A stretch of DNA of 45,850 bases from Candidatus Levybacteria bacterium RIFCSPHIGHO2_02_FULL_40_18 (GCA_001782235.1 MFOC01000003.1:1-45850); one strand, 5' to 3'. Positions 3,627-39,419 are shown, numbered from the stretch's first letter. Numbers and translations are program-made. Notes: generated by a model not told the origin, from the letters alone.

Positions 3627-4060
3627 GAACTCAAAGCTCAAATCGCAAAACTCAAAATGAATCAAGAAGCATGAATCAAGAAGCAAGGAAAATAAGAAAT
3701 TTTACAGATTTGAACGCATGGAAAGAGGCTCATAGGCTGGTTTTATTTATCTATCGAATAACAAAGGACTTCCCTCGTGAAGAACTATTCGGACTAGTAA
3801 ATCAATTAAGACGTGCGGTTATTTCGATAACATCTAATATCGCTGAAGGATTTAGTAGGAGTTCTTATAAGGAGAAGTCTCAATTTTATTCGATGGCATT
3901 AGGCTCGCTAACTGAAGTTCAGAATCAGCTTATTGTATCAAGAGACTTAGGATACATAACAAAAAAGGATTTTGAAGAATTGGAAGATATAACTATTACA
4001 GTAAGCAAATTGCTTAATGGTCTTATTAAAAAATCTAAAACCATGATTCATAATTCATGA
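3623..4060 (+). CDS. Four-helix-bundle protein (23S rRNA intervening-sequence protein family)
   Basis: NFTDLNAWKEAHRLVL...ITSNIAEGFSRSSYKEKSQFYSMALGSLTEVQNQL is the family signature (PF05635/TIGR02436 type). In-frame ATG 3671 is an equally plausible start. Start and stop both lie inside the flanking inverted-repeat arms. Confidence 0.85.
   Translation: MRTQSSNRKTQNESRSMNQEARKIRNFTDLNAWKEAHRLVLFIYRITKDFPREELFGLVNQLRRAVISITSNIAEGFSRSSYKEKSQFYSMALGSLTEVQNQLIVSRDLGYITKKDFEELEDITITVSKLLNGLIKKSKTMIHNS
3637..3688. repeat. Left composite arm of the inverted repeat enclosing the four-helix-bundle gene
   Basis: CTCAAATCGCAAAACTC (3637-3653) is the reverse complement of 4075-4091 with 1 mismatch in 17. 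GAATCAAGAAGCATGAATCAAGAAGCAAGG (3659-3688) pairs with 4041-4070 at 24 of 30 positions (hand alignment). Confidence 0.7.
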
Positions 4061-4131: not shown

Positions 4132-4797
4132 ATGTCCGAAATATTTTTATATTATGCTCTTCTAACATCTGTTTTCCTCCTGTCAGGAGTTTTAATAGTT
4201 GTGATTCAATATCTTTTTAATGTTTTAAAAAAGAATAAGCTGTATCAAAAAGATGCGGTTCGTCACAGTCAAGAAATCATTTCACACGCAAATGAAAAAG
4301 CTAAACAGATAATATCTGAGGCGCAAGTTTTTTCAGACGAGGTCCGGCAAGGGAGTGATAAACTCATAGCAAGCCTTAAAGAATCTCAAAGAGAGGAACT
4401 TAAGAAGGCCGCAGACAGGCTTTTTGAAGAATATAAAGCTGCGCTGGAAGAAGTTTATAAAGAGAATATCAATATATTTAGAAATATATCAAAAGATATC
4501 GAAGAAAAGGCAGGTTTTGAAATTCGTGACTTTAAAGAGATTTTGGAAAAAGAAACAATCGAGTCCCAAAAGATTGTTGGTGAAAAAATAGAAACTGAAT
4601 ATCATGATGTACAAAAGGAGATTCAGGAGTACAAAAACCGCGAGCTTTTGAAGGTTCAGGAAAGCATTTATGGGATTGTACATAATGCCATTGAACTTGC
4701 AATCGGTAAATCGCTGGATCGACAAACCCAGGAGGAACTGGTAATGGAAGCTTTGAAAGAAGCCATCGAAAAACAAGAAACGTCAGAATCTAAATGA
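4132..4797 (+). CDS. atpF: F0F1 ATP synthase subunit b
   Basis: One N-terminal TM helix (IFLYYALLTSVFLLSGVLIVVI) followed by a long charged coiled coil. It sits immediately upstream of atpH-atpA. The ORF-track start at 4114 is a TTG inside the repeat arm, so ATG 4132 is preferred. Confidence 0.75.
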   Translation: MSEIFLYYALLTSVFLLSGVLIVVIQYLFNVLKKNKLYQKDAVRHSQEIISHANEKAKQIISEAQVFSDEVRQGSDKLIASLKESQREELKKAADRLFEEYKAALEEVYKENINIFRNISKDIEEKAGFEIRDFKEILEKETIESQKIVGEKIETEYHDVQKEIQEYKNRELLKVQESIYGIVHNAIELAIGKSLDRQTQEELVMEALKEAIEKQETSESK

Positions 4798-4926
4798 GAA
4801 TGGTTATTTGAAAATGGAAATTAGTAATGGAAGGAAGGAAATAGAAAATAGCTAAATAACACGAATTTCCAATATCTAATTTCTATTACCATTTTCTAAT
4901 TTCTTATAACCAATTTCTAAATATTA
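4798..4926. repeat. Low-complexity hairpin element (GGAAATT/AAAATGG word family) filling the atpF-atpH spacer
   Basis: Left half TTATTTGAAAATGGAAATTAGTAATGGAAGGAAGGAAATAGAAAATAG closely matches the reverse complement of 33745-33797. Right half CTAATTTCTATTACCATTTTCTAATTTCTTATAACCAATTTC is an imperfect complement. Related copies lie at 24056-24135, 32570-32697 and 33657-33800. Confidence 0.65.
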
Positions 4927-5382
4927 ATGGACATTCCTAAATTTTTATCAAAAGTGTATACAACTGAAGACAGAGTTAGATTATATTCTGAAATCGAGTT
5001 GGTTTCGGAGGCCATATATAAAGAGGGTGAGCTTAACAAGGTACTTGCATCCCGCGTTTCTAAGGCACTAGTGGAATATATTGGCAGCGAGAGTTCTTAC
5101 GAAATACTTTCAGAAAAACTTTCGGAGCTTAAGAAGGCTCTAGACCAATTAGTAATTATGAAGCTGACGCTTGCTTTTGAGCCTTCGGAACAAACAATTA
5201 AGAAAATAGTGACTTTCATTCGTGAAAACTTGGATGAAAAGACGATATTTGAGATTTGCCAACAACCAAATATCCTAGGTGGCGCAATCCTTGAGTTCAA
5301 AGGATTGTACAGAGATTACAGTCTCAAAACCAGGCTCGAAGAGATTTTTAAGAGTAAGCGAGATGAGCTATATAAAATATGA
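4927..5382 (+). CDS. atpH: F0F1 ATP synthase subunit delta (OSCP)
   Basis: C-terminal ...QQPNILGGAILEFKGLYRDYSLKTRLEEI resembles the delta/OSCP signature. Operon position fits, and the stop overlaps the atpA start (ATGA). Confidence 0.75.
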   Translation: MDIPKFLSKVYTTEDRVRLYSEIELVSEAIYKEGELNKVLASRVSKALVEYIGSESSYEILSEKLSELKKALDQLVIMKLTLAFEPSEQTIKKIVTFIRENLDEKTIFEICQQPNILGGAILEFKGLYRDYSLKTRLEEIFKSKRDELYKI

Positions 5383-6863
5383 ATAATTTTGAAGACTATT
5401 TAAAAGAAATAGGAGAAATAGGATATGTTGAAGAGGTGGTTGGACCGATTGCTCAAGTGAGCGGTTTGCCGGGCGCAAAATGTGAAGAACTCGTGATGTT
5501 TGAAAGCGGGGAAATAGGTCAGGTCCTTTCTTTGTCCGAAGACTTTGTCGAAGTTCTAATATTTTCAAGAAACCCTATAAAGGTAGGCGTTAGGGCCGTC
5601 CGACTCAACAAGCCTTTTGAGATGCCGGTAGGACATGAATTGCTTGGGCAGATTATAGATCCTTTTGCACGGCCCTTTGACGAGACAAGGCCGGTAAAAA
5701 CCCCAAAAGACAGAAGAAATATTCTCGTTAAGGCCGCAGGAATCGACAAGCGAAGAACAATTAAAAGGCATTTAGTGACAGGTGTGACACTCGTTGACTT
5801 ATTAATACCAATCGGCTTTGGACAAAGAGAGCTTTTGATTGGAGACAGAAAAACCGGTAAGACAAATTTCCTCTTGGCCACAATTTTATCGCAGGCAAAA
5901 AGAGGAACTATCTGTATTTATGCTGTTATTGGCAAAAGAAAGATTGATATTAAAAAAATTGAAGACCTTTTTGTAAAGAATAAGGTCATGGATAACATTA
6001 TTATGATTGCAACAACATCTTTTGATCCGCAAGGATTAATCTATTTAACACCCTACTCCGCTATAACAATTGCGGAATATTTTCGAGACGCGGGAATAGA
6101 TACAATTTTAGTCATTGATGATCTATCAAATCATGCGAGGTTTTACAGAGAAATTTCACTTCTCGGCCGCCGTTTTCCGGGAAGAAATTCTTACCCTGCA
6201 GATATCTTTCACACACACGCACGGTTTATGGAAAGAGCCGGAAATTTTATAGTCGGCGACAAGGAGGTATCAATTACTGTGCTCCCGATAGTTGAAACAA
6301 ACCAGGGAGATCTCTCAGGCTACATTCAAACCAATCTCATGTCAATGACCGACGGCCACCTTTATTTTGATCAAGGCCTCTTTTCCCAAGGGATTCGCCC
6401 CGCGATTAATCCCTTCATATCGGTGACTCGTGTTGGTCAGCAAACCCAATCGTCTCTCCAGCGAAGCATTGCACGAGAGCTAAGATCTTTCCTTGTCTTG
6501 TATCAAAAAACAAAGCGATTTGTCCACTTTGGTGAAGAGATTAGCCAATCAATAAAGACAATTCTCGCAACGGGGGATAATCTTACCCGCTTCTTTCACC
6601 AACCTCCTTCAAGCATTACCTCAGAAAACATACAGATTTTTCTCTTTGCTTTGCTTTGGTCAAATTTCTTTGGAGATGAACCGTTTGAAAAAATAAAGCA
6701 GGATATGGATAAATGGAGAGTAATGTATGAGGAAAATAAAGCTTTTCACGATAACATAGATAATATGATTGCAACATCATCCCATTTAAATGAGCTGCTC
6801 TTGAAAATCAAGGGAATCCAAACCAAAAACAATCCAGACCAGAAGATCGTCTTAACAAGCTGA
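5379..6863 (+). CDS. atpA: F0F1 ATP synthase subunit alpha
   Basis: Walker A GDRKTGKT, then ICIYAVIGKR, LPIVETNQGDLSGYIQTNLMSMTDGHLYF and RPAINPFISVTRVG. Confidence 0.95.
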   Translation: MNNFEDYLKEIGEIGYVEEVVGPIAQVSGLPGAKCEELVMFESGEIGQVLSLSEDFVEVLIFSRNPIKVGVRAVRLNKPFEMPVGHELLGQIIDPFARPFDETRPVKTPKDRRNILVKAAGIDKRRTIKRHLVTGVTLVDLLIPIGFGQRELLIGDRKTGKTNFLLATILSQAKRGTICIYAVIGKRKIDIKKIEDLFVKNKVMDNIIMIATTSFDPQGLIYLTPYSAITIAEYFRDAGIDTILVIDDLSNHARFYREISLLGRRFPGRNSYPADIFHTHARFMERAGNFIVGDKEVSITVLPIVETNQGDLSGYIQTNLMSMTDGHLYFDQGLFSQGIRPAINPFISVTRVGQQTQSSLQRSIARELRSFLVLYQKTKRFVHFGEEISQSIKTILATGDNLTRFFHQPPSSITSENIQIFLFALLWSNFFGDEPFEKIKQDMDKWRVMYEENKAFHDNIDNMIATSSHLNELLLKIKGIQTKNNPDQKIVLTS

Positions 6864-6926
6864 ATCAAGAAGCAAGAATCAAGAAGCAGGGGGGAACCAT
6901 GATTCATGATTCAAGATTCATGATTC
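6862..6926. repeat. Cargo-less hairpin with the same arms as the four-helix-bundle cassette
   Basis: GAATCAAGAAGCAAGAATCAAGAAGCAGG (6862-6890), loop GGGGAA, then CCATGATTCATGATTCAAGATTCATGATTC (6897-6926). About 23 of 30 positions are complementary. The left arm is almost identical to 3659-3688 and to the reverse complement of 36639-36668. Confidence 0.75.
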
Positions 6927-6933
6927 AAAACAT

Positions 6934-14624: not shown

Positions 14625-16508
14625 ATGGCATTCCATAAAAAAATATTTTCTCTGTATCATCAAACCGGAGCCTTACTCATAGTCTTGATAGTTTTAACAG
14701 GCTCAATATTCTATGTAATTTTGGGCGGTCAAGGTGAACAAAAATCACAACCCCAACCAATATCAGAAATTACAAACAAAGAACAATTTGTTGAAATTGC
14801 GGAAACTTCCGTGCCGGGCACCTTTGAATCAGGCGCGTCATGTGCGGGAGGAGCTGATGGAAACTACAATGTGGTAAAGAATGGCATTACTCTCCACGTT
14901 TGCGAAGCATCTCAAGGAGAAGTTTGCAGAATTTATAGCACAGGTGCCGAATGCGTTCAAACAATTAGCAGTGGCGGAAGTGATGGATGCACACAGCATT
15001 CTCAATGTGTCGTTGGATTTTGTCTTGACAGCTTCCAGGAAAACTTGCCCAACTATTGTTTCAGCGGAGGAGGCGGTCCAGGATCGGAATGCAGAGGTTA
15101 CGACGGTTTAGATATAGATATTATCTGTAGATCGGGTAATTGCGATAGTGGGTATTGTGTCGGCGACGCACCTCAACCGACTCAACCAGGTGGCGGCGGT
15201 GATGCTTGTGCAGGGACTCCCGGTTATAACACTACAAATATGGCATGTATTAACTATTTGGGAAATGACTATTTCCCTGAAGGAGACGCATCAAGTCCTG
15301 CAGCCTGCCAAACTTCCTGCCAGAATGATTCAAATTGCGCCGCTTGGACTTGGGTAAGGCCAGGTGTTCAGGGATCGAGCGCTCATTGCTATAAAAAGAA
15401 TCCAAAACCTGCCTCTGTTGCAAATAGTCCTGCAGACTGCTGCATTTCTGGAGCAAAGACGGGCGGAGCTCCTATACCAACACAGCCAGGTGGATACCAA
15501 CCTGTTCCCACAAACATCCCTGTACCCACCCAGCAGCCGGGTGACGGGAACATCCAATATAGTCTTTCACTAAATGTATCGCCTACACAAGTTAAGCCAG
15601 GTGAAAGCGTAACCCTTTGTTATGCATTAACTCCTCAAAATATTCCTTTTCATGTCCGGCTTCTTTCATCATCAGGGGGAACATTTACATTAGTGTCGGA
15701 GTGGGACGATAATGGTATTGGAGGAGGAGACTGCATCGGCGTTAAAATCAATGCTGGCGCAACTCCCGGCTCAAGACAACTAAAAGTAGAAGCAATAGTT
15801 AATAATTCAAAAGTAGCCGAAGAAACAGTTTCTATAACGATTACAGGCGGCACAGGAGGCAGTTCCCCGACTGCGACCCCCACTCCAACGCCGACAAAAA
15901 CTCCAACGCCCACTTTAACACCCACTCTAACTAACACTCCTACTCCGACAGCAAGCCCTACGCCTACTTCCCAGCAGCCTAGTCCAACTCCAACCCTTTC
16001 TCCGAACCAAAGCTCAATCGCGCTCACTATAAAACTAGCCGGAATCGGTTCAAATACATCTCTTGGACAAAATAATAATCCCGTGAAAACCAGCCTCCCT
16101 GTTGAAATTCAGGTTTTTAATTTAAATAGTCAGAAAATTAAAGATGTGGGGGGCAATCTGATTTTTGATTCTGCCACGGCAAGCTTCAAAGGTACTGTCT
16201 TCCTTGGATCGGATCTCACAGAATCAGCATATGTGTTTAAAGTAAGGCTAAATAACGCTCTATGGAAAGCGATAACTTCACAAATTACACCCGGACAAAC
16301 AACTAACCTACCTGAGAAAGAGCTTATTTCAGGAGATCTTGATCAAAATAATGAGCTTAACTTGCTTGATTACAACGCGCTTATCTCCTGCTACGGCTCC
16401 AAATCATGTTCAAATAAGGAAAAGGCGGATCTCAATCTTGACGGGAAAGTCGACGAGCTCGACTTAAATATCTTCTACGCCGCCCTTGCGAAGCGAACAG
16501 GCGACTAA
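14625..16508 (+). CDS. Secreted/anchored protein: TM anchor, Cys-rich region, PAN/Apple-like domain, Ig-like domain, PT linker, Ig-like module plus dockerin-like C-terminus
   Basis: PAN-like [31 protein letters not shown]. Linker [35 protein letters not shown]-terminal [22 protein letters not shown]...[17 protein letters not shown]. Confidence 0.8.
16332..16497 (+). repeat. 166-bp perfect direct repeat, copy 1 (dockerin-like coding segment)
   Basis: Identical base for base to 18066-18231 in my hand alignment. Flanks diverge immediately on both sides. Confidence 0.9.
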
Positions 16509-16556: not shown

Positions 16557-18242
16557 GTGGGTCTTATAACCTTTAACATTCCGAGTCGCAAGAATATTAT
16601 TGCCGCAATTGTTGTTTTTTTAAGTCTAATTGGACTGCCTGTGATAATTTGGCAAATTGGAAGGACGCAGGATATCAGACAGAAGGCGGCGGAAACTAGC
16701 GCTCTTGACTCATCGCCCCAAATTATCGTCATTGACGGCAAGTGCTCTCAAGATAATGGTTTGGTTGTTGTCCAGGAAGGAGCCATCATTGAAAACTATC
16801 TAATTAAGAACGTGCGTGAGGCGGGGATCAGGGTGGAGGCTCCGAACGTTACCATTCGCAATGTCGAGATAGTAAATCCAGACTGCGATGGTTCTGGCGA
16901 TCAATTTGCCGCAGGAGTTGCCTGCTGGCAACCGTGTACGGGCCTGAAAGTTTTAGACTCTAAAATCACTGGCAACTCTGCCAGACGTGGTAATGGCATA
17001 TGGATGAAAAATACTAATTCCTCCCATGGCATAGGTAATCATTATATTGCCCGTAACGTAATCTCCTCTGTTTGGGATGGAATTGGATCTGAGGCGGAAG
17101 GTGATGCATGGGGAGGCTTCGTTGCCAACTCACTTGTGGAAGCCAATCGAATCACCAACTGTGCCGACGACGGTATACAGATGGAAGGCCGCAATGAGAA
17201 CATTACAGTGCGCCGCAATGAGATTTCCGGGTGTGGCATAGGAATTGCCTACGCGCCCAGCTTAGTTGGGCCGCTTTATATAGAAAACAACTATATCCAT
17301 AATCTAATAACGGGCGACTACGGACAACAGGCCTGTTACAAAGTTGGTAGCAACTCTGCAGGGGACATATTTATTTCCGGCGAGCGTTGTTTTGGGCCCG
17401 GTGACGGCATCAAGCAAACCAATTCAGGATCGCTGGGACGCGTTGTGAGTCATAATAACTGCTATATTGTAACACGGTACGTTGTTGAATATACGTCAGT
17501 GCCACAAGCTCCTTCTGGCACTAGCCTTAATTTTGAAGGTGATACAATGTTCTCCTCCGACCCTTCCAGATTTGTGAAGTGGAATGGTAGTGCGATTAGC
17601 TTTGAGCAATTTAACACACTGCCTCAAGTTGGGACAGAAGTACTGAGTCAAAATTGCCCAAATGATAATCCCATAATAACTCCTTCACCAACGCTTACCC
17701 CAATATTCATACCTAGCCCAACTCCTACGGTCGCTGCCAATCAAGCTTCAATTTTGTTCGACATCAAACTTGTTGGTATTGGATCAAATACTGTCATTGG
17801 ACAAAATCCGAATCCTATAAGATCATCTATTCCTCTTGAGGTCCAGATACTATCTACTCAAAATCAGCCAGTATTGGATACATCGGGGTTGCTTACATAC
17901 AACAGTAGCACATCAAGCTTTCAAGGCAATGTAAATCTTGGATCAAGTCTTTCTCAAGGAGCATACATTATCAAGATTAGGTTAAATAATACTCTTCGTC
18001 GTTCTTTAATCACTCAGGTAAACCTGGGGCAAACAACTGGTTTGGCTCCGCAGGAACTTATTCTGGGAGATCTTGATCAAAATAATGAGCTTAACTTGCT
18101 TGATTACAACGCGCTTATCTCCTGCTACGGCTCCAAATCATGTTCAAATAAGGAAAAGGCGGATCTCAATCTTGACGGGAAAGTCGACGAGCTCGACTTA
18201 AATATCTTCTACGCCGCCCTTGCGAAGCGAATCGGTGACTAG
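16557..18242 (+). CDS. Secreted/anchored right-handed parallel beta-helix (pectate-lyase-fold) protein with Ig-like module plus dockerin-like C-terminus
   Basis: Repetitive beta-helix coils: NVTIRNVEIVN, ITNCADDGIQMEGRNENITVRRNEISGCGIGI, IENNYIHN. GTG start (the ATG two bases upstream is out of frame). The C-terminal ~55 aa are identical to the previous protein. Confidence 0.75.
   Translation: MGLITFNIPSRKNIIAAIVVFLSLIGLPVIIWQIGRTQDIRQKAAETSALDSSPQIIVIDGKCSQDNGLVVVQEGAIIENYLIKNVREAGIRVEAPNVTIRNVEIVNPDCDGSGDQFAAGVACWQPCTGLKVLDSKITGNSARRGNGIWMKNTNSSHGIGNHYIARNVISSVWDGIGSEAEGDAWGGFVANSLVEANRITNCADDGIQMEGRNENITVRRNEISGCGIGIAYAPSLVGPLYIENNYIHNLITGDYGQQACYKVGSNSAGDIFISGERCFGPGDGIKQTNSGSLGRVVSHNNCYIVTRYVVEYTSVPQAPSGTSLNFEGDTMFSSDPSRFVKWNGSAISFEQFNTLPQVGTEVLSQNCPNDNPIITPSPTLTPIFIPSPTPTVAANQASILFDIKLVGIGSNTVIGQNPNPIRSSIPLEVQILSTQNQPVLDTSGLLTYNSSTSSFQGNVNLGSSLSQGAYIIKIRLNNTLRRSLITQVNLGQTTGLAPQELILGDLDQNNELNLLDYNALISCYGSKSCSNKEKADLNLDGKVDELDLNIFYAALAKRIGD
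18066..18231 (+). repeat. 166-bp perfect direct repeat, copy 2
   Basis: Identical to 16332-16497. Confidence 0.9.
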
Positions 18243-20143: not shown

Positions 20144-20960
20144 TCCCCTTTCGCACGCCCTTAAAATACTTTATACTTACCTTGTGGAGTTGCCTTATGC
20201 ATTAATATTGGGAGTCGTAGAGGGTATCACCGAGTTTCTTCCTATCTCATCTACGGGACATTTGATTTTTGTTTCAAATCTTTTAAGAATCGAGCAGACC
20301 GAGTTTGTGAAAACTTTTGAGATAGCTATCCAATCTGGCGCTATTTTGGCAGTGGTTTTTCTTTACTTTCGAACCGTTTTTGGCAATTTTGAATTAATCA
20401 AGCGGATTCTTGTTGCTTTTGTTCCAACCGCAATAATAGGATTTACACTATACAAATTCATCAAACAATATCTAATCGGCAGTTCCGAAGTAGTTCTACT
20501 CTCTTTATTCCTGGGAGGAATAGTTTTGATCGCCGTCGAGTTCATCTTCAAAGCCAAAAGCCAAAAGCTAACAGCTAAAAGCCAACTTTCCTATGAAAAG
20601 GCCTTCGTAATTGGGCTTTTCCAATCCGTCTCGATGATTCCAGGCATCAGCCGTGCCGCGGCAACAATTATTGGTGGGCTTCTTGTTGGTTTGACAAGAA
20701 AAGAGGCAGTCGAATTTTCATTTTTGTTGGCAGTTCCGACCATGCTCGCCGCAACCGCCCTTGATCTCAATCAATCGAATTTCTTACAACTTACATCTTA
20801 CCAACTTACAGCCCTTACGGCCGGCTTTATCACTTCCTTTGCCGTTGCGCTAATTTCAATCAAATGGCTCCTCAAATACATTCAGGCCAATACCTTCATC
20901 CCTTTTGGAATCTACCGAATTATAATCTCTATTCTTTATTTCTTTTTGATATTAAAATGA
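20130..20960 (+). CDS. uppP: Undecaprenyl-diphosphate phosphatase
   Basis: VEGITEFLPISSTGHLI and SMIPGISRAAATIIGGL are BacA/UppP signatures. The 20130 ATG overlaps the divergent gene's start, so in-frame GTG 20184 (VELPYALILGVVEG...) is a likely true start. Confidence 0.9.
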   Translation: MSMYIPLSHALKILYTYLVELPYALILGVVEGITEFLPISSTGHLIFVSNLLRIEQTEFVKTFEIAIQSGAILAVVFLYFRTVFGNFELIKRILVAFVPTAIIGFTLYKFIKQYLIGSSEVVLLSLFLGGIVLIAVEFIFKAKSQKLTAKSQLSYEKAFVIGLFQSVSMIPGISRAAATIIGGLLVGLTRKEAVEFSFLLAVPTMLAATALDLNQSNFLQLTSYQLTALTAGFITSFAVALISIKWLLKYIQANTFIPFGIYRIIISILYFFLILK

Positions 20961-24055: not shown

Positions 24056-24135
24056 CTATTGGAAATTGGTTATTAGATATTAGATAATGGTTTTACTAAT
24101 TTCCATTTTCCAATAACCATTTTCTTGCAATAACC
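24056..24135. repeat. Hairpin element of the GGAAATTGG word family, upstream of the PEGA gene
   Basis: CTATTGGAAATTGGTTATTAGATATTAGATAATGG, then TTTTA, then CTAATTTCCATTTTCCAATAACCATTTTCTTGCAATAACC. The arms are imperfectly complementary and use the same words as 4798-4926, 32570-32697 and 33657-33800. Confidence 0.6.
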
Positions 24136-25454: not shown

Positions 25455-26402
25455 ATGAATGAAAAGTTGCACTTTACGCCCCTTCAGGAAACATTTGAGA
25501 GGTGGCATGCGCGTGCCTTAAAAAAAGCTCCGCTTTCAGGCCTGCTTGATCCCATAACAGATACAGCGTGGTCAGCGTCCAAAGCTAAACGTTTTTTGAT
25601 GGAGGACTTCCATAGGATTTTTATCGAAACTCAAAAAGCTAATGCTTCGTGGATAGAATCAAGATTCAAAGTTGTAAGAGAAGAATTTGGGGAGTGGTCA
25701 ATAGATGGAATGATGGTTGATCCGAATGGAAGACTTGTAGCCGGCCCATGGTCTACTTACAATGTATATTCGTCAGGTAAGGAATTTGCGTTGTCAATGG
25801 AAGATATAGTGGAAGCTGCTCAAAAAAACAATACCATGCTTTATCCATTAACTCCCTTTCGCGACAGCACGTTATTCTGGTTCTATCATCAAGGTGAGGA
25901 AGCGATCCGTTGGGTAGTTAACGAGGCGATTGGCGAGCGATTGGAAGTAGATAATTATCCTATAGATCCGGGAATTGCAAGTGAAATGCCGGATATGATT
26001 AGGATGGCTCGAATACCACGCGGGAAGATTGGTAAAGGTAAATTAGCGAAAGCAGGCATGGCTTCTGGTAGGTTGGGGTTCTGGGAGAATATAAGCGCGA
26101 ATATTTACTGGGCCGGTAAGTACATCCCAAGAGTTTATGCTGATAAATCCGGAGTCCTAGATAGACAAATTACTATTTCCCCATTAAGAGAAGGCAAGGT
26201 AATAGCATCGGGAGGATTGCCTATGGATGAAAAACATCCCAATTTAGAAGTGATAAGGACGGATCCTGATCTAGCAGGTAATGATTTTATAGCGGCAGCA
26301 CTTGTTGCTTTCGCCCAAGCGCAACCAAATCTTCCATTCGTCTTAAGCTATAACACCTATAGACCTTGGTTCGGAGAAGTTCCCCGCCACGGCGAAAAAT
26401 AA
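25455..26402 (+). CDS. Hypothetical cytoplasmic protein
   Basis: Clean 315-aa ORF with no signal peptide and no motif I recognise. Confidence 0.6.
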   Translation: MNEKLHFTPLQETFERWHARALKKAPLSGLLDPITDTAWSASKAKRFLMEDFHRIFIETQKANASWIESRFKVVREEFGEWSIDGMMVDPNGRLVAGPWSTYNVYSSGKEFALSMEDIVEAAQKNNTMLYPLTPFRDSTLFWFYHQGEEAIRWVVNEAIGERLEVDNYPIDPGIASEMPDMIRMARIPRGKIGKGKLAKAGMASGRLGFWENISANIYWAGKYIPRVYADKSGVLDRQITISPLREGKVIASGGLPMDEKHPNLEVIRTDPDLAGNDFIAAALVAFAQAQPNLPFVLSYNTYRPWFGEVPRHGEK

Positions 26403-26426
26403 TCATTCACACTATTCTATAGCTAA

Positions 26427-26435
26427 TGGTATAAT
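26427..26435 (+). promoter_or_regulatory. Extended -10 promoter TGGTATAAT (cassette A)
   Basis: Exact TGnTATAAT, 14 nt upstream of the conserved leader. The same nonamer occurs at 38353-38361 in the paralogous locus. Confidence 0.6.
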
Positions 26436-26448
26436 CCACTTAGGTTCT

Positions 26449-26571
26449 AAGGAACTTTCCCAAACTCGCATAAAAGCTGTGTGAGAACTGGCTATTGGCT
26501 TTTGGCGCTTTGCTTCTGGCTTATGCTAACAGCTAAAGGCTAAATGCTAACAGCTATTTGGGATCGCACCT
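26449..26571 (+). promoter_or_regulatory. Conserved 123-nt 5' leader, copy A (candidate structured cis-regulatory RNA)
   Basis: Matches 38376-38498 at 122 of 123 positions by hand alignment (G/A difference in CTTTTG[G/A]CGC). Possible CCCAAA...TTTGGG closing helix, CTCGCA/TGTGAG hairpin, and a long GU-containing pairing of GGCTATTGGCTTTTGGC with GCTAAATGCTAACAGCT. Confidence 0.6.
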
Positions 26572-26627
26572 TATCAACTGACACGGACATCTACTCGGAA
26601 AGCCTATATTCAAAAAAGGAGGTTGTT

Positions 26628-26807
26628 TTGAGCCTGTCAAGAATAATTGACTTGACTCTTTTAATCTCGGTCATAATAGCAGTTTTCCTTGGTCCAAATC
26701 CCTTGGGACTTGGATTTGGAATACTGGCAGGGCTGGCTTTGGTGGTTAAGATTCTTCGTGATCGATTCCGAAGAACACAAAGCCTTCCTCGGAAAAAGGG
26801 AAAATAA
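26628..26807 (+). CDS. 59-aa two-TM small membrane protein
   Basis: AAGGAGG at 26616-26622, then a TTG start 5 nt later. Sequence: LSLSRIIDLTLLISVIIAVFLGPNPLGLGFGILAGLALVVKILRDRFRRTQSLPRKKGK. The ORF-track start at 26544 lies in the leader, which is non-coding in copy B. Confidence 0.6.
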   Translation: MSLSRIIDLTLLISVIIAVFLGPNPLGLGFGILAGLALVVKILRDRFRRTQSLPRKKGK

Positions 26808-26808
26808 G

Positions 26809-26988
26809 ATGAGGGATACATTTCTAGTCAATCTGGCCCTTTGCGCTCTGATCGGCGTTCTAATATTCACCATCGGCCTCCTAACTTCACAAGAGGTAAT
26901 TTATGGGATAGCCATTTCAGTATCCCTTGTTTTGACAGGTATAGTCTTTTGCCGTAAAGGGCTTAAAGGAACAACTCGACACAACTAG
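26809..26988 (+). CDS. 59-aa two-TM small membrane protein
   Basis: The ATG is 1 nt after the previous stop. Sequence: MRDTFLVNLALCALIGVLIFTIGLLTSQEVIYGIAISVSLVLTGIVFCRKGLKGTTRHN. This is the internal start of track ORF 26689-26988. Confidence 0.6.
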   Translation: MRDTFLVNLALCALIGVLIFTIGLLTSQEVIYGIAISVSLVLTGIVFCRKGLKGTTRHN

Positions 26989-27029
26989 CCGCTCGCGAAG
27001 ATTCGCGAAGCGAGAAACGGAGGAAAACG

Positions 27030-27224
27030 ATGAGAAATCTTAAGTGGCTGCTTCTGGCAGTTACGCTCACCGCATTTGGAATCGGAGTACAGTACGCCAT
27101 CCAGTGGTCCCTCGATTGGGAACACGAAACCATGGTTGCGACCATGATTGGCATAACTATGCTATCTTTTGCGGTAGCCGCTGTTCTCATGTTCGTAGCC
27201 GAAAAACTCAACCTCAATATCTAG
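27030..27224 (+). CDS. 64-aa two-TM small membrane protein
   Basis: GGAGG lies 7 nt upstream of the ATG. Sequence: MRNLKWLLLAVTLTAFGIGVQYAIQWSLDWEHETMVATMIGITMLSFAVAAVLMFVAEKLNLNI. Confidence 0.6.
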   Translation: MRNLKWLLLAVTLTAFGIGVQYAIQWSLDWEHETMVATMIGITMLSFAVAAVLMFVAEKLNLNI

Positions 27225-27259
27225 CCGCTCGCAGACACGAGTAAGAAAGGAAAGGGAAG

Positions 27260-27565
27260 ATGAACATAGTATTGGTTCTCGCAGAGATTGCGATCGCAGT
27301 CATTGGATATTTTGCTCTCCGAGCAAAGTACGTCTGGCTGGTCAAAGACCAAGGCATACACCCAATGTACGTAATTGTCGGGCTTGTTCTCATGCTGAGT
27401 TTCACTCTAATGTCGATGATGATTTCGATTGGGGTTGAAACATTCACGTGGACCAGCGCGATAATCCTTATGCCAGCACCGCTGATGCTTGCTTTGCCGC
27501 TCTTGTTGGGCAAGCTCGAGCGCCGCATCAACACTGGCCGCGCCCACCGATCTAAAACCGAATAG
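27260..27565 (+). CDS. 101-aa three-TM small membrane protein
   Basis: A purine-rich RBS (GGAAAGGGAAG) precedes the ATG. Hydrophobic segments IVLVLAEIAIAVIGYFAL, YVIVGLVLMLSFTLMSMMISIGV and AIILMPAPLMLALPLLLG, with a basic tail. Confidence 0.6.
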   Translation: MNIVLVLAEIAIAVIGYFALRAKYVWLVKDQGIHPMYVIVGLVLMLSFTLMSMMISIGVETFTWTSAIILMPAPLMLALPLLLGKLERRINTGRAHRSKTE

Positions 27566-27626
27566 TCCGTGCCGACAACTTAATGCGCTCTCCCCGCCTA
27601 TAGCGAGGGGGTTCCGATTCTATCGG

Positions 27627-27653
27627 AAACAAATCAATACCGATTAAATCGGT
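27627..27653 (-). terminator. Possible intrinsic terminator for the histidine kinase operon
   Basis: ACCGAT-TAA-ATCGGT hairpin (27639-27653), followed on the minus strand by ATTGATTTGTTT. Confidence 0.35.
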
Positions 27654-27681
27654 ATAAACAAACAGCGCATTTCTACTTTTT

Positions 27682-32551: not shown

Positions 32552-32569
32552 AGTCTAACTTGTGTTCTA

Positions 32570-32697
32570 GAAAATAGTTGTAGGAAATTGGACAATGGTT
32601 ATAGAAATAGGATATTGAAAATAAGTATTTAAAAGCTATTTTCTATTTTCAATTTTCCATTACTAATTTCTATTTTCTAATAACCAATTTCTTGTTT
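32570..32697. repeat. Hairpin element (GGAAATTGG word family) separating the two comEC ORFs
   Basis: Left arm GGAAATTGGACAATGGTTATAGAAATAGGATATTGAAAATAAG. Right arm CTATTTTCTATTTTCAATTTTCCATTACTAATTTCTATTTTCTAATAACCAATTTC. The upstream ORF's last codons and stop (..KKLVIRK*) lie inside the right arm. Confidence 0.65.
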
Positions 32698-33656: not shown

Positions 33657-33800
33657 GGGAAATTGGTTGTTAGAAATTAGAAAATGGTTATAGAAATTAG
33701 ATACTAGAAATTGGGGTTATTTATTATTATTTAACTATTTTCTATTTTCCACACTCCATTACTAATTTCCATTTTCAAATAACTATTTTCAAATACTCTA
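33657..33800. repeat. Hairpin element (GGAAATTGG word family) between comEA and comEC
   Basis: Left arm GGAAATTGGTTGTTAGAAATTAGAAAATGGTTATAGAAATTAGATACTAGAAATTGG. Right arm CTATTTTCTATTTTCCACACTCCATTACTAATTTCCATTTTCAAATAACTATTTTC. Confidence 0.65.
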
Positions 33801-33803
33801 TCA

Positions 33804-34412
33804 TCATAGACTAATTAGGTCTCGAATCTTCTCATATGTTGCTTTTCCGACTATTTTTCTTTCTAATAACTCTTCTACCGAACCATATGGTCGATTGTCT
33901 ATAATTTTCCCTGCTGTCACAGGCCCAATCCCCGGCAACTCTTCAAGTTCAGATGTCGAAGCCGAATTTACCGAAATCAAACCCGTGATACTTGCTTGCC
34001 CTGAGCTTGTCGAACGGGTGGTACCCGTCACAATCTCCCCTTCTGCTGGAACATATATTTTTTGTCCGTCAACAATTTTGGCTGCAAGATTAATGGCTTT
34101 TCTATTTGCATCCGAAGTTAACCCACCGGCCGCAATTAGAGCATCCTGCACACGCGCATCTTGAGAAAGTTCATAAACGCCCGGTTTTATTACTTCTCCT
34201 TCAACGTCAACCTTAATTTTTGAAACCGACGAACCCTCAACGGCTTGTCCATCTTCAAATTTAATCGAAGCCTGCTGCTGCCCCGTCATCTGTATCAAAC
34301 CACTACTTAATAATATCAACCCTACTACAAACAGCCCCACAATAAGAAAATTTTGTTTTGCAAACAGCAAGGCCTTATCATGAAATGATTTTTCGGAAGT
34401 GTCCACTGACAA
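33804..34412 (-). CDS. comEA: Competence protein ComEA (TM, SLBB, helix-hairpin-helix)
   Basis: VDVEGEVIKPGVYELSQDARVQDALIAAGG is SLBB-like. ELEELPGIGPVTAGKIIDNRPYGSVEEL is the HhH motif. Confidence 0.9.
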   Translation of the reverse strand: MSVDTSEKSFHDKALLFAKQNFLIVGLFVVGLILLSSGLIQMTGQQQASIKFEDGQAVEGSSVSKIKVDVEGEVIKPGVYELSQDARVQDALIAAGGLTSDANRKAINLAAKIVDGQKIYVPAEGEIVTGTTRSTSSGQASITGLISVNSASTSELEELPGIGPVTAGKIIDNRPYGSVEELLERKIVGKATYEKIRDLISL

Positions 34413-35584: not shown

Positions 35585-38317
35585 TCAAATAACAAAATTT
35601 ATAATGCGGCCGGGGATGTAAATGACGTTTTTCACGGATTTTCCTGCAACGTATTTTTCGACTTCTTTTCGCGCGAGAGATTCGACCTCATTCTTTTTTC
35701 CAATGTTCGAACTATCAATCGTGACTTCTCCTCGTCTTTTTCCATTCACCTGAACCACAACGGTAACTTTTTCTTGGACTAAATATTTTTCATCATATTT
35801 TGGCCACTCACTAAAGTGAATGGAATCACGAATCATGAATTTTGAATCATGGTTAATTTCCCCTTGATTCTTGCTTCTTGCTTCATGCTTCATTTCTTGC
35901 CATACCTCCTCCGCCAAATGTGGCGCGAACGGTGCGAAAAGCCTGAGATATGATCTCGCGGTTTGCTGCGACCATGATTTATTGTTGTCCGAAATGAAGT
36001 TGTAAAATTCCATTAGCCTTGCTATTGCCGTATTATAAGAGAATTCTTCAATGTCAAGCGTTACTTTTTTAATGGTCTTATTTATCATTTGAAGTGTATC
36101 TTGATTGTCCTCCCCGAACTCTTTTGTGGTAAACAAGTTCCAAACCCTGCGCACGAAACGGTGCATTCCTTCGATTCCGGTATCGCGAAAATCTCCACCT
36201 TGAGAAAATGGGCCAAGAAACATAAGATAAAGCCTTAAAGTATCGGCTCCGAATTTTTCAATGTAAATGTCAGGAACAACTATGTTGCCACGCGACTTGC
36301 TCATTTTGGCACCCTCTGAGATAATAAGTCCGTGCGCAAAAAAGCGTGGGAAAGGCTCGGCGAAAGGCAAAGCTAGATCATGGATCTTAGATCTTAGATT
36401 TTGGATATTGATTTTCGATCTATTATCTATGATCGATAATCTATCATCTAAATTTAGATCATGCAATACCATCGCTATAAAACGAACATATAAAAGATGT
36501 AGCACCGAATGCTCTGCTCCGCCAATGTAAATTGCTATGGGACACCACCGCCTTACGATCTTCAGATCGTAAGGAATGTCCAATTTCAAATTTCCAATTT
36601 CCAATGGTTGATCCGATTTGATGTCTTTAGAACTAGTTCCTTGCTTCTTGATTCTTGCTTCTTGATTCTGAATGCTCAAATAGCGCAGGTAGTACCAGGA
36701 TGAGTCTAAGAAGGTATCGGAAACATCCGTTTCACGTTTTGCAGAACTATTACAGGATGGGCACTTTGTTTGGTAGAACTCCGGATGGTTTGCTAAAGGA
36801 GACGTTCCTGTTCCTTCCGGCCGCCAATCTTTTACGTCAGGGAGCTCGACCGGCAACTGTTCTTCCGGTACTGCTCGAATCATATGTTCCCTCCCGTCAA
36901 TTATTGCGTAATCCCTGCCTTCGATCAGTTTTGAATTTTGAGTTTTGAGTTTTGAGTTTCCCCAGCATTTACGACAGTAAATGATGGGAATCGGCGGGCC
37001 CCAATATCTTTGGCGTGAAATCAACCAATCCCGCAGATGATAAGTTGTTTCTGGTCCTCCGGCTCTGTACCTCTCAAGCCACTGGGCTATTTTCTTCTTT
37101 GCTTCGGCCGAACTCAAACCTGAAAACTCACCTGAATCAAATAAAACCCCGTCCCCGGTGAAACACTCCTCAAGACTATCGATTCGCTTATCTTTTTTTT
37201 TGTCTCCTGTATGCAACGTAGGCTTAAGTCGAATACCATACTTTTTGGCAAATTCAGTATCGCGCTCGTCATGCGCATCTCCAAACAAAGCACCTGTACC
37301 GTAGCCCATTACCGCGTAATCTGCGATCCAAATAGGAATTTTCTCTTTGTTAACCGGGTTTATACCATATAGACCGGAAAATACGCCAGTTTTTTCTTTG
37401 TTCTCGATCCTCTCCTTATCCGATTTCTTTTTCGCCTTTTCAATATATTGCTGGACAAACTTATCTCTGATTGACGTTGAAATCGGGTGCTCAGGAGCAA
37501 GCACTAAAAAGGTGGCGCCGAACAAAGTATCTGCTCGTGTAGTAAACACCTCTATCTCCTTAATTTTTAACTTTGAATTTTGAACTTTGAACTTGATTCG
37601 GGAACCCTCTGATTTTCCTATCCACTGGCGCTGGGCAATCTTTATCTTTTCCGGCCAATCAATCTGGTTCAAACCATTAAGAAGTGCATCAGCATATGCG
37701 GTAATTTTAAAGAACCATTGTTCGAGGTCGCGCTTCTCGACAACTGACGAACAACGCTCGCAGCGCCCGTCGATTACTTGTTCATCCGCTAAAACGGTTT
37801 TATCCGAAGGGCACCAATTGACCCGGGCTTTTTTGCGGTAAGCCAACCCTTTTTTAAACATTTGTACAAATATCCACTGTGTCCATCTATAATAATCCGG
37901 ATCATAAGTCTCTAAAGTCCTTGTCCAGTCATAAGCGTTTCCGGTTGCCCGAAGCTGTCTATAAAAATTCTTTTCTGAAATTTTGGCCTGCTCTCTCGGG
38001 TGGCGGCCAACCGCAAGCGCATAGTTCTCAGAATGTATGCCAAACCCGTCAAGTCCGATCGGCTCAAAAACATCCTTACCCTTCATTCTCATGTAGCGAC
38101 CGTGAATATCTGCTCCTGTAAAAGCATACATATTCCCTACATGTAGGCCCTCTGCCGAAGGATATGGAAACATCATTAGTGTGTAGTAGGGATTTTTAGC
38201 ATTTTTAAGATCAGGCGAAAAAGTTTTATTTTCCTCCCAATATTTCTGCCATTTGACCTCAATCTCTTGCGGTTTATACTGCGCCTTCCTATTCATAGCA
38301 CAATTATACCTAATCAT
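35585..38317 (-). CDS. leuS: Leucyl-tRNA synthetase with several low-complexity in-frame insertions
   Basis: PYPSAEGLHVGN (HIGH region), KMSKS, WCPSDKTVLADEQV, VFTTRADTLFGATF, RDWLISRQRYWGPPIP. The likely true start is MNRKAQYKPQEIEVKWQKYW, with its ATG at complement 38294-38296. Confidence 0.95.
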   Translation of the reverse strand: MIRYNCAMNRKAQYKPQEIEVKWQKYWEENKTFSPDLKNAKNPYYTLMMFPYPSAEGLHVGNMYAFTGADIHGRYMRMKGKDVFEPIGLDGFGIHSENYALAVGRHPREQAKISEKNFYRQLRATGNAYDWTRTLETYDPDYYRWTQWIFVQMFKKGLAYRKKARVNWCPSDKTVLADEQVIDGRCERCSSVVEKRDLEQWFFKITAYADALLNGLNQIDWPEKIKIAQRQWIGKSEGSRIKFKVQNSKLKIKEIEVFTTRADTLFGATFLVLAPEHPISTSIRDKFVQQYIEKAKKKSDKERIENKEKTGVFSGLYGINPVNKEKIPIWIADYAVMGYGTGALFGDAHDERDTEFAKKYGIRLKPTLHTGDKKKDKRIDSLEECFTGDGVLFDSGEFSGLSSAEAKKKIAQWLERYRAGGPETTYHLRDWLISRQRYWGPPIPIIYCRKCWGNSKLKTQNSKLIEGRDYAIIDGREHMIRAVPEEQLPVELPDVKDWRPEGTGTSPLANHPEFYQTKCPSCNSSAKRETDVSDTFLDSSWYYLRYLSIQNQEARIKKQGTSSKDIKSDQPLEIGNLKLDIPYDLKIVRRWCPIAIYIGGAEHSVLHLLYVRFIAMVLHDLNLDDRLSIIDNRSKINIQNLRSKIHDLALPFAEPFPRFFAHGLIISEGAKMSKSRGNIVVPDIYIEKFGADTLRLYLMFLGPFSQGGDFRDTGIEGMHRFVRRVWNLFTTKEFGEDNQDTLQMINKTIKKVTLDIEEFSYNTAIARLMEFYNFISDNNKSWSQQTARSYLRLFAPFAPHLAEEVWQEMKHEARSKNQGEINHDSKFMIRDSIHFSEWPKYDEKYLVQEKVTVVVQVNGKRRGEVTIDSSNIGKKNEVESLARKEVEKYVAGKSVKNVIYIPGRIINFVI

Positions 38318-38352
38318 ATCCCTAGTAGCTAGTCACTAGTTGCTAATTTAAG

Positions 38353-38361
38353 TGGTATAAT
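38353..38361 (+). promoter_or_regulatory. Extended -10 promoter TGGTATAAT (cassette B)
   Basis: Same nonamer and same spacing to the conserved leader as at 26427-26435. Confidence 0.6.
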
Positions 38362-38375
38362 CAGGTCAAGTTCAG

Positions 38376-38498
38376 AAGGAACTTTCCCAAACTCGCATAA
38401 AAGCTGTGTGAGAACTGGCTATTGGCTTTTGACGCTTTGCTTCTGGCTTATGCTAACAGCTAAAGGCTAAATGCTAACAGCTATTTGGGATCGCACCT
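38376..38498 (+). promoter_or_regulatory. Conserved 123-nt 5' leader, copy B
   Basis: 122 of 123 positions identical to 26449-26571. The internal ATG (ATGCTAACAGC...) hits a stop after 8 codons here, so the leader is non-coding. Confidence 0.6.
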
Positions 38499-38538
38499 GA
38501 AAAACTAACCACGGACAAAATCAAGGAGGTTTCGCCGG

Positions 38539-38703
38539 ATGAAAATAACTCTTGTGGGAATCATCATCGTTCTCCTTAGCAGCATGGTCGCCTATGGCAT
38601 CTTAATCCGGGTATTCGGAGAAAACACAGGAGGATCAATCTTTATCGGTGCCTTTGTAATTATGCTTAGCCTTTACCTTCTTAGCAAGCGGAGCAAGCCT
38701 TAA
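38539..38703 (+). CDS. 54-aa two-TM small membrane protein
   Basis: AAGGAGG lies 9 nt upstream of the ATG. Sequence: MKITLVGIIIVLLSSMVAYGILIRVFGENTGGSIFIGAFVIMLSLYLLSKRSKP. Below the ORF-track cutoff. Confidence 0.55.
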   Translation: MKITLVGIIIVLLSSMVAYGILIRVFGENTGGSIFIGAFVIMLSLYLLSKRSKP

Positions 38704-38743
38704 GGCACTCATAAGCCTCAATTTAAGAAAGGGGAGGGTAATT

Positions 38744-39169
38744 GTGAGGTCCCAGCCTCAATTGCGCGCGTTGAGACGCATCCAGTACCTAGTCTGCCTA
38801 TGGTCGGGAACGCTCATGATGCTTCTTGCAATCTTTGTGTTTGCGACCATCCCCGGGGAAAAAGGGAGTGATCTAACTCTAGGTGTCTCGAATGAGGTAC
38901 CAAGCGTTTTGTTCTGGAAGGCAGGACACCTGTTTGGCTTTGCGCTTTTTGCCGGGTTTTTAACCCTTGCGGCAAGCGCAACATTTAACCAGAACATCCC
39001 AGGCGCCAGGATCAAAGCAGTGGTTATTATCGTCGGGATTCTTATGGCGATAACAACCGAGCTCCTTCAGAGCTTTGTCCCGGGGCATATACCCGCAATC
39101 TACGATATCGGCATTGACGTTGCTGGTACTGCTCTCGGAATAAAGTTCGCTATTCTATGGCGAAAGTAG
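38744..39169 (+). CDS. VanZ-like family membrane protein
   Basis: KAGHLFGFALFAGFL, ITTELLQSFVPGHIPAIYDIGIDVAGTALGI. GTG start preceded by GGGGAGG. Confidence 0.6.
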   Translation: MRSQPQLRALRRIQYLVCLWSGTLMMLLAIFVFATIPGEKGSDLTLGVSNEVPSVLFWKAGHLFGFALFAGFLTLAASATFNQNIPGARIKAVVIIVGILMAITTELLQSFVPGHIPAIYDIGIDVAGTALGIKFAILWRK

Positions 39170-39184
39170 TAAAAGGAGGCGCCG

Positions 39185-39277
39185 ATGCAGCCACCGATTG
39201 AAGCGCTCGTCTTTGTTCTCGTCATTCTGACGATCATTAGCGCGATCGTCAAGTCACGCGATCGAAGGCAGCCATGA
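39185..39277 (+). CDS. Possible 30-aa single-TM peptide
   Basis: AAGGAGG lies 5 nt upstream of the ATG. Sequence: MQPPIEALVFVLVILTIISAIVKSRDRRQP. Confidence 0.35.
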   Translation: MQPPIEALVFVLVILTIISAIVKSRDRRQP

Positions 39278-39419
39278 ATAACGTCCGTGGGAAAGGAAGC
39301 GCTCTTTCGCCTTATTGGCGAATTCCGATTCATCGGAAACAAATACACAAATTGAGCGCTTCCTCCACACTTCCTCGAACATACTCGATACTGAATATTC
39401 AATACTGTATACTATAAAC

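Follow-up and report, generated by a model that had tools for sequence, protein, structure and literature searches.

What kind of unit is represented when two loci of one genome share both of their ends but carry different genes between them? This question is raised by a 45,850 nt stretch of a Candidatus Levybacteria genome (hereafter the window), the + strand of which carries two loci of equal architecture, A and B, each with a leader, a set of small ORFs, and a structured trailer (Table 1). A preliminary description had proposed that the two loci have common ends and differing cargo, as would a mobile or recombining gene cassette or a dedicated expression module. The ends and the cargo are indeed of this kind: the leaders share 134 nt at 96% identity, the trailers are related, and the cargo proteins are unrelated. 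Of the two interpretations, the expression module is the better supported, by the extended -10 box TGGTATAAT in all three of the units compared here, by compensatory changes in leader helix P2, and by ends that are better conserved than the VanZ protein between them, whereas the support for a mobile cassette is indirect. Most likely, these are copies of an expression frame that can be reused, and not of a cassette with demonstrable mobility.

Table 1. Positions of the features of loci A and B, of the related unit on contig L013, and of associated repeats. Positions are those of the window unless L013 or L014 is named.
Feature	Position	Strand	Sequence or remark
Locus A promoter	26406-26435	+	TTCACA, 18-nt gap, extended -10 box TGGTATAAT at 26427-35
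Locus A leader body	26449-26571	+	122/123 positions match locus B
Leader A helix P0			AAGG with CCUU
Leader A helix P1	26458-64 with 26557-63		UCCCAAA with UUUGGGA
Leader A helix P2	26465-72 with 26478-85		CUCGCAUA, loop AAAGC, UGUGUGAG
Leader A P3	about 26489-26556		74-nt heptamer hairpin
Locus A leader tail	26572-26627	+	CACGGAC 26582-88; ribosome-binding site GGAGG
Locus A cargo	26628-27565	+	four small membrane-protein ORFs (ORF list, ribosome-binding sites)
A1	26628-26807	+	TTG start
A2	26809-26988	+
A3	27030-27224	+
A4	27260-27565	+
Locus A trailer	27560-27670	+	fold; covariance model 44 bits, E = 2e-8
Trailer A GAATA	27560-64
Trailer A GTCCGTG	27565-71		overlaps stop codon TAG
Trailer A outer stem	27583-89 with 27664-70		AUGCGCU with AGCGCAU
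Trailer A GCGCTCT	27585-91
Trailer A hairpin 1	27590-97 / 27603-11		CTCCCCGC / GCGAGGGGG
Trailer A hairpin 2	27612-18 / 27622-28		TTCCGAT / ATCGGAA
Trailer A ACAAAT	27629-34
Trailer A hairpin 3	27637-55
Locus B extended -10 box	38353-38361	+	TGGTATAAT; starts 36 nt from divergent LeuRS start codon
Locus B leader	38376-38538	+	body 38376-38498 with P0-P3; tail with CCACGGAC 38509-16 and ribosome-binding site
Locus B cargo	38539-39277	+	three ORFs
B1	38539-38703	+	54 aa, two transmembrane helices
B2	38744-39169	+	VanZ family
B3	39185-39277	+	30 aa
Locus B trailer	39276-39360	+	fold; covariance model 84.5 bits
Trailer B GAATA	39276-80
Trailer B GTCCGTGG	39283-90
Trailer B outer stem	39298-304 with 39354-60		AGCGCUC with GAGCGCU
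Trailer B GCGCTCT	39299-305
Trailer B hairpin 1	39306-11 / 39317-22		TTCGCC / GGCGAA
Trailer B hairpin 2	39323-38
Trailer B ACAAAT	39339-44
L013 TGGTATAAT	106-114
L013 leader	121-222
L013 VanZ	223-651		49% protein identity to B2
L013 internal copy of hairpins 1 and 2	655-705		degenerate
L013 membrane ORFs	996-1370, 1411-1707		two, unrelated
L013 trailer	1706-1790
Inverted repeat, locus A	26582-26588 with 27565-27571
Inverted repeat, locus B	38509-38516 with 39283-39290
Inverted repeat, L013	190-197 with 1714-1720
TAGCC-hairpin junctions	26983-27029, 27219-27259; L013 1365-1410; L014 725-747
Heptamer-periodic repeats	3634-3690, 4796-4931, 6856-6929, 20550-20584, 24058-24124, 32568-32691, 33659-33817

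The promoter of locus A has 11 of 12 consensus matches in a promoter scan, together with the TG of an extended -10 box. Within the window, TGGTATAAT is present at the two leaders only, and it also precedes the leader of the L013 unit. All of the cargo ORFs have a ribosome-binding site. B2 belongs to the VanZ family, based on the Pfam model PF04892 (E 1.5e-8, 35.7 bits, cut-off 30.1) and the NCBIfam model vanZ_1 NF037970 (42.8 bits, cut-off 20); none of the other cargo ORFs of A and B matched a Pfam or NCBIfam model, and no homologue of A4 was found among 5.8 billion proteins. Since an action on lipid-linked cell-wall precursors has been suggested for VanZ-family proteins (PMC12419801), the cargo can be related to the cell envelope. 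Junctions between ORFs have in common TAGCC, then a short hairpin that is GC-rich and varies in sequence, and a purine-rich ribosome-binding site; A2 and an unrelated 65-aa ORF on contig L014 have CACAACTAGCC in common at their ends.

Locus A adjoins a histidine kinase / response regulator operon, with 11 nt between the end of its trailer and the stop codon of the convergent kinase gene. Locus B is located between the LeuRS gene and a conserved, co-directional membrane-protein gene that starts at 39420, downstream of the trailer. The -10 boxes of these two neighbours (TATAAT, 38318-38328, for LeuRS and TATACT, 39407-39419, for the membrane-protein gene) are only 6 nt from the start codons, which suggests that both mRNAs are leaderless or nearly so. 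Just upstream of locus A there is a 315-aa ORF without a family match (25455-26402).

In the protein collection, relatives of the VanZ protein B2 formed two clusters only, the contigs of which are L013 (2053 nt) and L014 (747 nt). The preliminary description made its reading depend on leader and trailer being paired elsewhere, and L013 does carry such a pair outside this genome, its trailer being followed by an orthologue of the membrane protein encoded downstream of locus B. All of the blocks are present in this trailer (GAATA, TCCGTGG, GCGCTTT, and CCAAAT), as are hairpin 1 (TTCGCC / GGCGGA), hairpin 2 (TTCTGAT / ATCAGAA), and the outer stem (GCGCUUU / AAAGCGC). L014 begins inside the leader tail and continues with VanZ and the 65-aa ORF. 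Covariance models of leader and trailer recovered three units only in 162 kb, made up of the window and its relatives. Directly after VanZ in L013, the sequence at 655-705 (CGCTCT, a short hairpin, and TCCGA-ATGAA-TCGGA) is a degenerate copy of the trailer; the two further ORFs and the full trailer follow about 290 nt past this internal copy, as if two units had been joined.

The leader contains a nested hairpin that was missed in the preliminary description. Relative to L013, four of the eight pairs of helix P2 are compensatory, and the loop AAAGC is invariant. The fold of leader A has a z-score of -3.55 against shuffles, and leader B scores 52.9 bits with the covariance model. In the window, the leader folds 13 kcal/mol better on the + strand (-49 kcal/mol) than on the - strand (-36 kcal/mol), owing to G-U pairs; a preference for the sense strand was not seen for the L013 leader. 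The L013 leader retains P0 (AAGG / CCUU), P1, with different bases and a shifted register in the fold, and P2 with AAAGC. P3, the 74-nt heptamer hairpin, is absent there; in the leaders of the window it is an insertion. Of all leader parts, the single-stranded tail, UCGCACCU-AAAAAYUAA-CCACGGAC-AAAAU, is conserved best, with 91% identity between B and L013 and 72% between A and B.

The two P3 copies (26489-26556 and 38416-38483) are of low complexity and consist of inverted heptamer arrays rich in G-U pairs. Many of the intergenic regions in this genome and in relatives (L010, L012, and L019) are filled with low-complexity repeats that have a heptamer period and form hairpins, and no description of such repeats for CPR genomes was found in the literature. 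Lineage-specific in-frame insertions in LeuRS coincide with heptamer repeats (35837-35869, 36638-36649, and 36893-36943; - strand), and the length of LeuRS among relatives ranges from 810 to 1063 aa. Direct repeats are found at 39-338 with 654-953 (300 nt, 70% identity) and at 16293-16507 with 18027-18241 (215 nt, 92% identity, where two large neighbouring ORFs have their 3' ends); both of these longer repeats probably represent internal or paralogous repetition in genes for surface proteins. The similarity of the repeats 236-267 / 851-882 to VanZ had suggested that the window starts with additional VanZ genes, but the sequence there is not VanZ-like.

The blocks and hairpins reported for the trailer could all be located in the sequence of both copies. 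The similarity of the two trailers also withstood a statistical alignment test: the local alignment of A with B scores 39, the best of 2000 shuffles scoring 30. This score comes wholly from a core of 22/23 nt, TTCCGATTC(T)ATCGGAAACAAAT, which contains hairpin 2; as a pattern, the core is found in the window in the two trailers only, with a chance expectation of 0. With two copies alone, significance is not reached by the short blocks that precede the core; all of them recur in the independent unit of L013 (1706-1790). Over the trailer, identities are 72% for A-B, 74% for B-L013, and 69% for A-L013. An outer helix, not noticed previously, encloses hairpins 1 and 2 in both trailers of the window, and hairpin 3 as well in A. 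The trailer folds are better than those of shuffles (z = -3.3 and -3.7), with no preference for the sense strand. At the gathering threshold, Rfam identified two tRNAs only in the window, with no match to leader or trailer, and at a permissive E-value the two loci gave only noise far below gathering scores.

It had been claimed that the structure of hairpin 1 is kept while its sequence changes; the stems of A do differ from those of B and L013, which supports the structure, but with three sequences, the stems of which MAFFT did not place in common columns, the statistics are weak. Hairpin 2, reported as conserved, is also present in L013, where it shows one true compensatory pair, C-G to U-A, a change that is statistically weak with three sequences. 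For hairpin 2 and the outer stem, all cells (100%) in these three sequences are paired, which is not significant alone. Hairpin 2 might also be regarded as DNA, with the core TTCCGAT-N-ATCGGAA as a double-stranded operator for a dimeric regulator, such as that of the neighbouring two-component system. A perfect 7-bp inverted repeat, located in the best-conserved part of the trailer, folding without strand preference, and, in locus A, abutted by the histidine kinase / response regulator operon, would agree with this. However, the spacer is 3 nt in A, 2 nt in B, and 4 nt in L013, which would not be tolerable for a rigid dimer site, the single change in L013 is compensatory on both arms, and the position is at the 3' end of the unit, which in B and L013 is not beside two-component genes. 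An operator is therefore highly improbable as the explanation of the core.

Hairpin 1 is GC-rich, with 6-8 bp, and four of the eight nucleotides of its tail, UUCCGAUU, are U; it was not listed by the terminator scan of the + strand. Hairpin 3 of A scores as a terminator on the - strand, for the convergent histidine kinase gene. Were transcription to stop after hairpin 1, the core and the outer stem would be outside the RNA and therefore not explained by a role in RNA. Two other candidate features of the trailers were rejected. A tRNA-like cloverleaf, formed in trailer A from the outer stem and three hairpins, had no ARAGORN or Rfam call, and the trailers of B and L013 have two hairpins. Likewise, an anti-Shine-Dalgarno CCUCC after trailer B is not conserved in A or L013.

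It could be argued that the two loci are ordinary remnants of a segmental duplication, in which a duplicated promoter region and generic terminator hairpins have no special function and the cargo has diverged or been replaced. Prokaryotes commonly reuse promoter regions for unrelated genes, over 4000 such families having been reported (PMC3575422), there are just two copies, and a GC-rich hairpin after an operon would be expected anyway. Between B and L013, however, identity is 91% over the leader tail and 74% over the trailer, in comparison with 49% for the enclosed VanZ protein, so that the shared blocks are kept in another species better than the protein. Furthermore, selection on structure is evident from the compensatory pairs of P2 and hairpin 2, and the most conserved part of the trailer, the 22-nt core with hairpin 2, differs from the terminator-like hairpin. 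An origin as duplication remnants without function is thus considered unlikely.

In all three units, the cargo is bracketed by a 7-8-nt inverted repeat, CACGGAC / GTCCGTG, which was also missed in the preliminary description. Each 7-mer of the repeat has three occurrences only in the 45.8 kb window. Similarity between A and B ends right after CACGGACA and restarts at GAATA..GTCCGTG, so that the limits of the unique cargo coincide exactly with the inverted repeat. In L013 the repeat pair is CCACGGA / TCCGTGG (7 + 8 bp when extended), and there is an adjacent 8-bp complement, UUCAGCUC (202-209) with GAGCUGAA (1701-1708), which was matched by none of 2000 shuffles. Extended 5'-3' pairing in A (UAUUC / GAAUA) and in B (UCAAGG / CCAUGA) is no better than in shuffles. 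Only the core repeat, not the flanking complementarity, is general to the units. Leader and trailer contain complementary 6-mers, such as GGCGAA with the start region of B1; these were discounted, as 8-9 were seen and about 8 are expected by chance.

These boundaries also bear on a DNA-level interpretation, in which leader and trailer, or the inverted repeat, are recombination sites, and a recombinase encoded elsewhere inserts, swaps, or inverts the cargo behind a resident promoter. Such a recombining or mobile cassette would account for the exact limits of the cargo, for a repeat that is kept and lengthened in L013, for the stop codon of the last ORF, which is always within the conserved start of the trailer, and for unrelated small ORFs that across species end in CACAACTAGCC or a TAGCC junction followed by a hairpin. 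Every genome has different cargo, presence at one site is patchy among relatives, and the GC content of the cassettes is raised (0.47-0.49 versus about 0.40-0.42 in the surroundings). Against this, no integrase, transposase, or invertase gene adjoins either locus, and no integrase catalytic domain was found in the flanking genes (LeuRS, the 315-aa ORFan, the histidine kinase, and the membrane protein). The only nearby Phage_int_SAM match is about 3 kb away, at the N-terminus of a very large protein of at least 1331 aa that extends from about 42600 to the right end of the window and also has a Peptidase_S74 domain; this protein is conserved in relatives (L003, 9649 onwards), including those without the unit at the LeuRS site.

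The ends of the unit likewise do not support transposition. They have neither terminal inverted repeats nor a target duplication, and no shared words of 6 nt or more, direct or inverted, were found there, except for a chance GGTATAA in A. Of the features of MITEs and IS-like elements (terminal inverted repeats, a target duplication, and multiple dispersed copies), none was found, as there are two copies only. Nor do the loci resemble invertible segments; the 7-8-bp repeat is present, but there is no recombinase, and in contig-level data 23-24 contigs show one orientation. There are no integron core sites in the trailers, with one trailer for every three or four ORFs. With two copies per genome and no other contexts, with assembled contigs that contain no joints or strand changes, and with all occurrences of known context at the same chromosomal site, a cassette that moves or recombines as DNA is quite unlikely, the more so than duplication remnants.

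The distribution of the unit was compared among relatives. LeuRS relatives assign the uncultured organism to Candidatus Levybacteria, a lineage of the CPR/Microgenomates. At the LeuRS site the unit was seen in the window, in L013, of which only the right flank is visible, and in one contig of JGI 3300056388. The latter, which carries LeuRS P0006 and is known from its gene layout only, has LeuRS, ORFs of 53, 54, and 66 aa, a VanZ of 177 aa, ORFs of 66 and 105 aa, and the membrane-protein gene. The LeuRS-site unit, locus B, is therefore shared with related species, in which VanZ is kept and the small ORFs come and go. A search for empty sites and target duplications had been suggested previously; the former exist, since the unit is absent at the LeuRS site in six syntenic relatives (L010, L012, L018, L019, L020/L021, and L023), but no target duplication was found. 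In these six the intergenic gap is 57-268 nt, and the empty site of L018 can be aligned with the right flank of unit B from about 39381 onwards. The closest relative by LeuRS (71%) is without the unit and a relative at 65% has it, therefore pure vertical descent needs repeated loss; the single chromosomal site of the units of known context fits descent with loss. At the site of locus A, the PEGA-domain gene and the kinase gene of relatives are separated by unrelated genes, and the 315-aa ORF is missing from this gap.

The metagenome runs containing the window sequence are from groundwater and soil, and no RNA sequencing run with this region was found. Near-identical strains are represented by 23-24 independent contigs, all with the same context and orientation, and contigs from four runs belonged to the same strain only, with no variants, joints, or strand changes. 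In the assembly graph of one run, a single shared leader piece has a depth of 75x, versus 42x for the flanks, with two entries and two exits, and therefore there are two copies per genome. Pattern scans gave no further units: the trailer core was not found in GTDB species genomes, a degenerate leader P1-P2 pattern was found in neither JGI metagenomes nor GTDB genomes, and the leader tail had three matches in JGI metagenomes, all in unrelated sequence. This absence is weaker evidence than it looks, because none of these scans returned the contig of the window itself, even though the patterns match the window.

The units can be compared with several known systems. Like the integron platform (attI, Pc, and attC), they have a promoter-proximal element, variable promoterless ORFs, and a 3' element that varies in sequence but keeps its fold, and, as in integron cassettes, the stop codons of ORFs are within conserved junctions. 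Unlike integrons, there is no IntI, neither trailer contains RYYYAAC / GTTRRRY core sites, each multi-ORF unit has a single trailer, which is branched with multiple hairpins whereas attC is a single long imperfect hairpin, and neither an array nor variation in copy number was seen. The ompA 5' UTR is an example of a 5' stem-loop that stabilizes mRNA. A stable hairpin a few nucleotides from the predicted 5' end, together with a GC-rich hairpin 3' of the last gene, is as expected for a stabilizer of this type combined with a terminator; however, the leader here is a covarying multi-helix structure with an equally conserved single-stranded tail, and the 3' element extends well beyond a simple intrinsic terminator and lacks a clear U-tract. 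Fold-back pairing of the 5' and 3' ends is known from the hok mRNA, and the products here are likewise small membrane proteins.

In the icaR mRNA of Staphylococcus aureus, the 3' UTR pairs with the Shine-Dalgarno sequence itself (PMC3868564). By sequence, the conserved motif directly after the last stop codon of the units is similarly complementary to a conserved motif in the predicted 5' UTR, just upstream of the first ribosome-binding site. It differs from icaR in that the repeat is of 7-8 bp and is 10-40 nt upstream of the Shine-Dalgarno sequence, with a longer duplex of 15 bp only in L013, and in that several genes are involved. Putative mobile promoters are defined by at least 80% identity over at least 50 nt upstream of non-paralogous genes in one genome (Matus-Garcia, Nijveen and van Passel 2012; PMC3575422), a definition into which the leader falls, since its shared 134 nt at 96% identity are well beyond these limits and are followed by genes for unrelated proteins. 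As in these families, a similar upstream region precedes non-homologous genes, and, as for many of those reported, there is no Rfam family. The units differ from putative mobile promoters in that the 3' end is shared too, in that the shared part is mainly a structured leader, predicted to be transcribed, and not the -35 region, and in that the near-identity is a recent patch on an older duplication.

The history of the two loci can be read from the identities. With P3 set aside, leader body A does not differ from leader body B, and the identity of each to that of L013 is only 60%. A near-identical body, in comparison with about 72% for the tail and trailer, points to an old duplication followed by recent homogenization. 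Judged in this way, locus A is an older paralogous unit, about as old as the split from the species of L013, and the 123-nt leader body was homogenized between A and B recently, by recombination or gene conversion, after the insertion of P3.

On balance, leader and trailer are somewhat more probably than otherwise an RNA-level expression frame, belonging to a single type of transcription unit within a subclade of Candidatus Levybacteria. This is favoured because of the compensatory changes, the better conservation of the ends than of VanZ, and the G-U pairs of the sense strand. We infer that the region is transcribed, and that from the strong extended -10 promoter transcription would start a few bases before the leader, about 7 nt past TATAAT (near 26442 and 38368). 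The leader RNA would form the nested 5' hairpin P0-P1-P2 with the apical loop AAAGC, followed by a conserved single-stranded tail, rich in A, that ends in CCACGGAC. The genes, for small membrane proteins and/or an enzyme of the VanZ family, would come next, and the unit would be closed by a structured 3' region, with GUCCGUGG directly after the last stop codon, followed by the outer helix around hairpin 1, a possible terminator, and the conserved hairpin 2. At the RNA level, mRNA stability and translation would be determined by the 5' hairpin and the 3' structure, which would also insulate the unit from its neighbours, and the complementary CACGGAC / GUCCGUG may clamp the two UTRs together.

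A more elaborate version of this frame can be envisaged, as an undescribed plug-in system of the CPR in which covarying leader and branched trailer RNAs are clamped 5'-3', genes are swapped at the inverted repeat and the TAGCC-hairpin junctions, as in an integron platform without the integrase, and the frame controls mRNA stability and translation. The whole of this combination is doubtful, at about the low probability given to the mobile cassette. If the elements are merely a promoter and a terminator, the matter is ordinary.

Almost nothing is known of gene regulation in the CPR/Patescibacteria. The elements described here are apparently an undescribed, lineage-restricted pair of structured non-coding elements that frame a variable operon of small membrane proteins. 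The mosaic of identities is a clear case of concerted evolution in a non-coding regulatory element. The 5'-3' clamp, if true, would be a multi-gene addition to the few known bacterial interactions between 5' and 3' UTRs. For this group of organisms, the units provide a concrete and testable pair of candidate structured RNA elements, with compensatory changes, framing genes related to the envelope.
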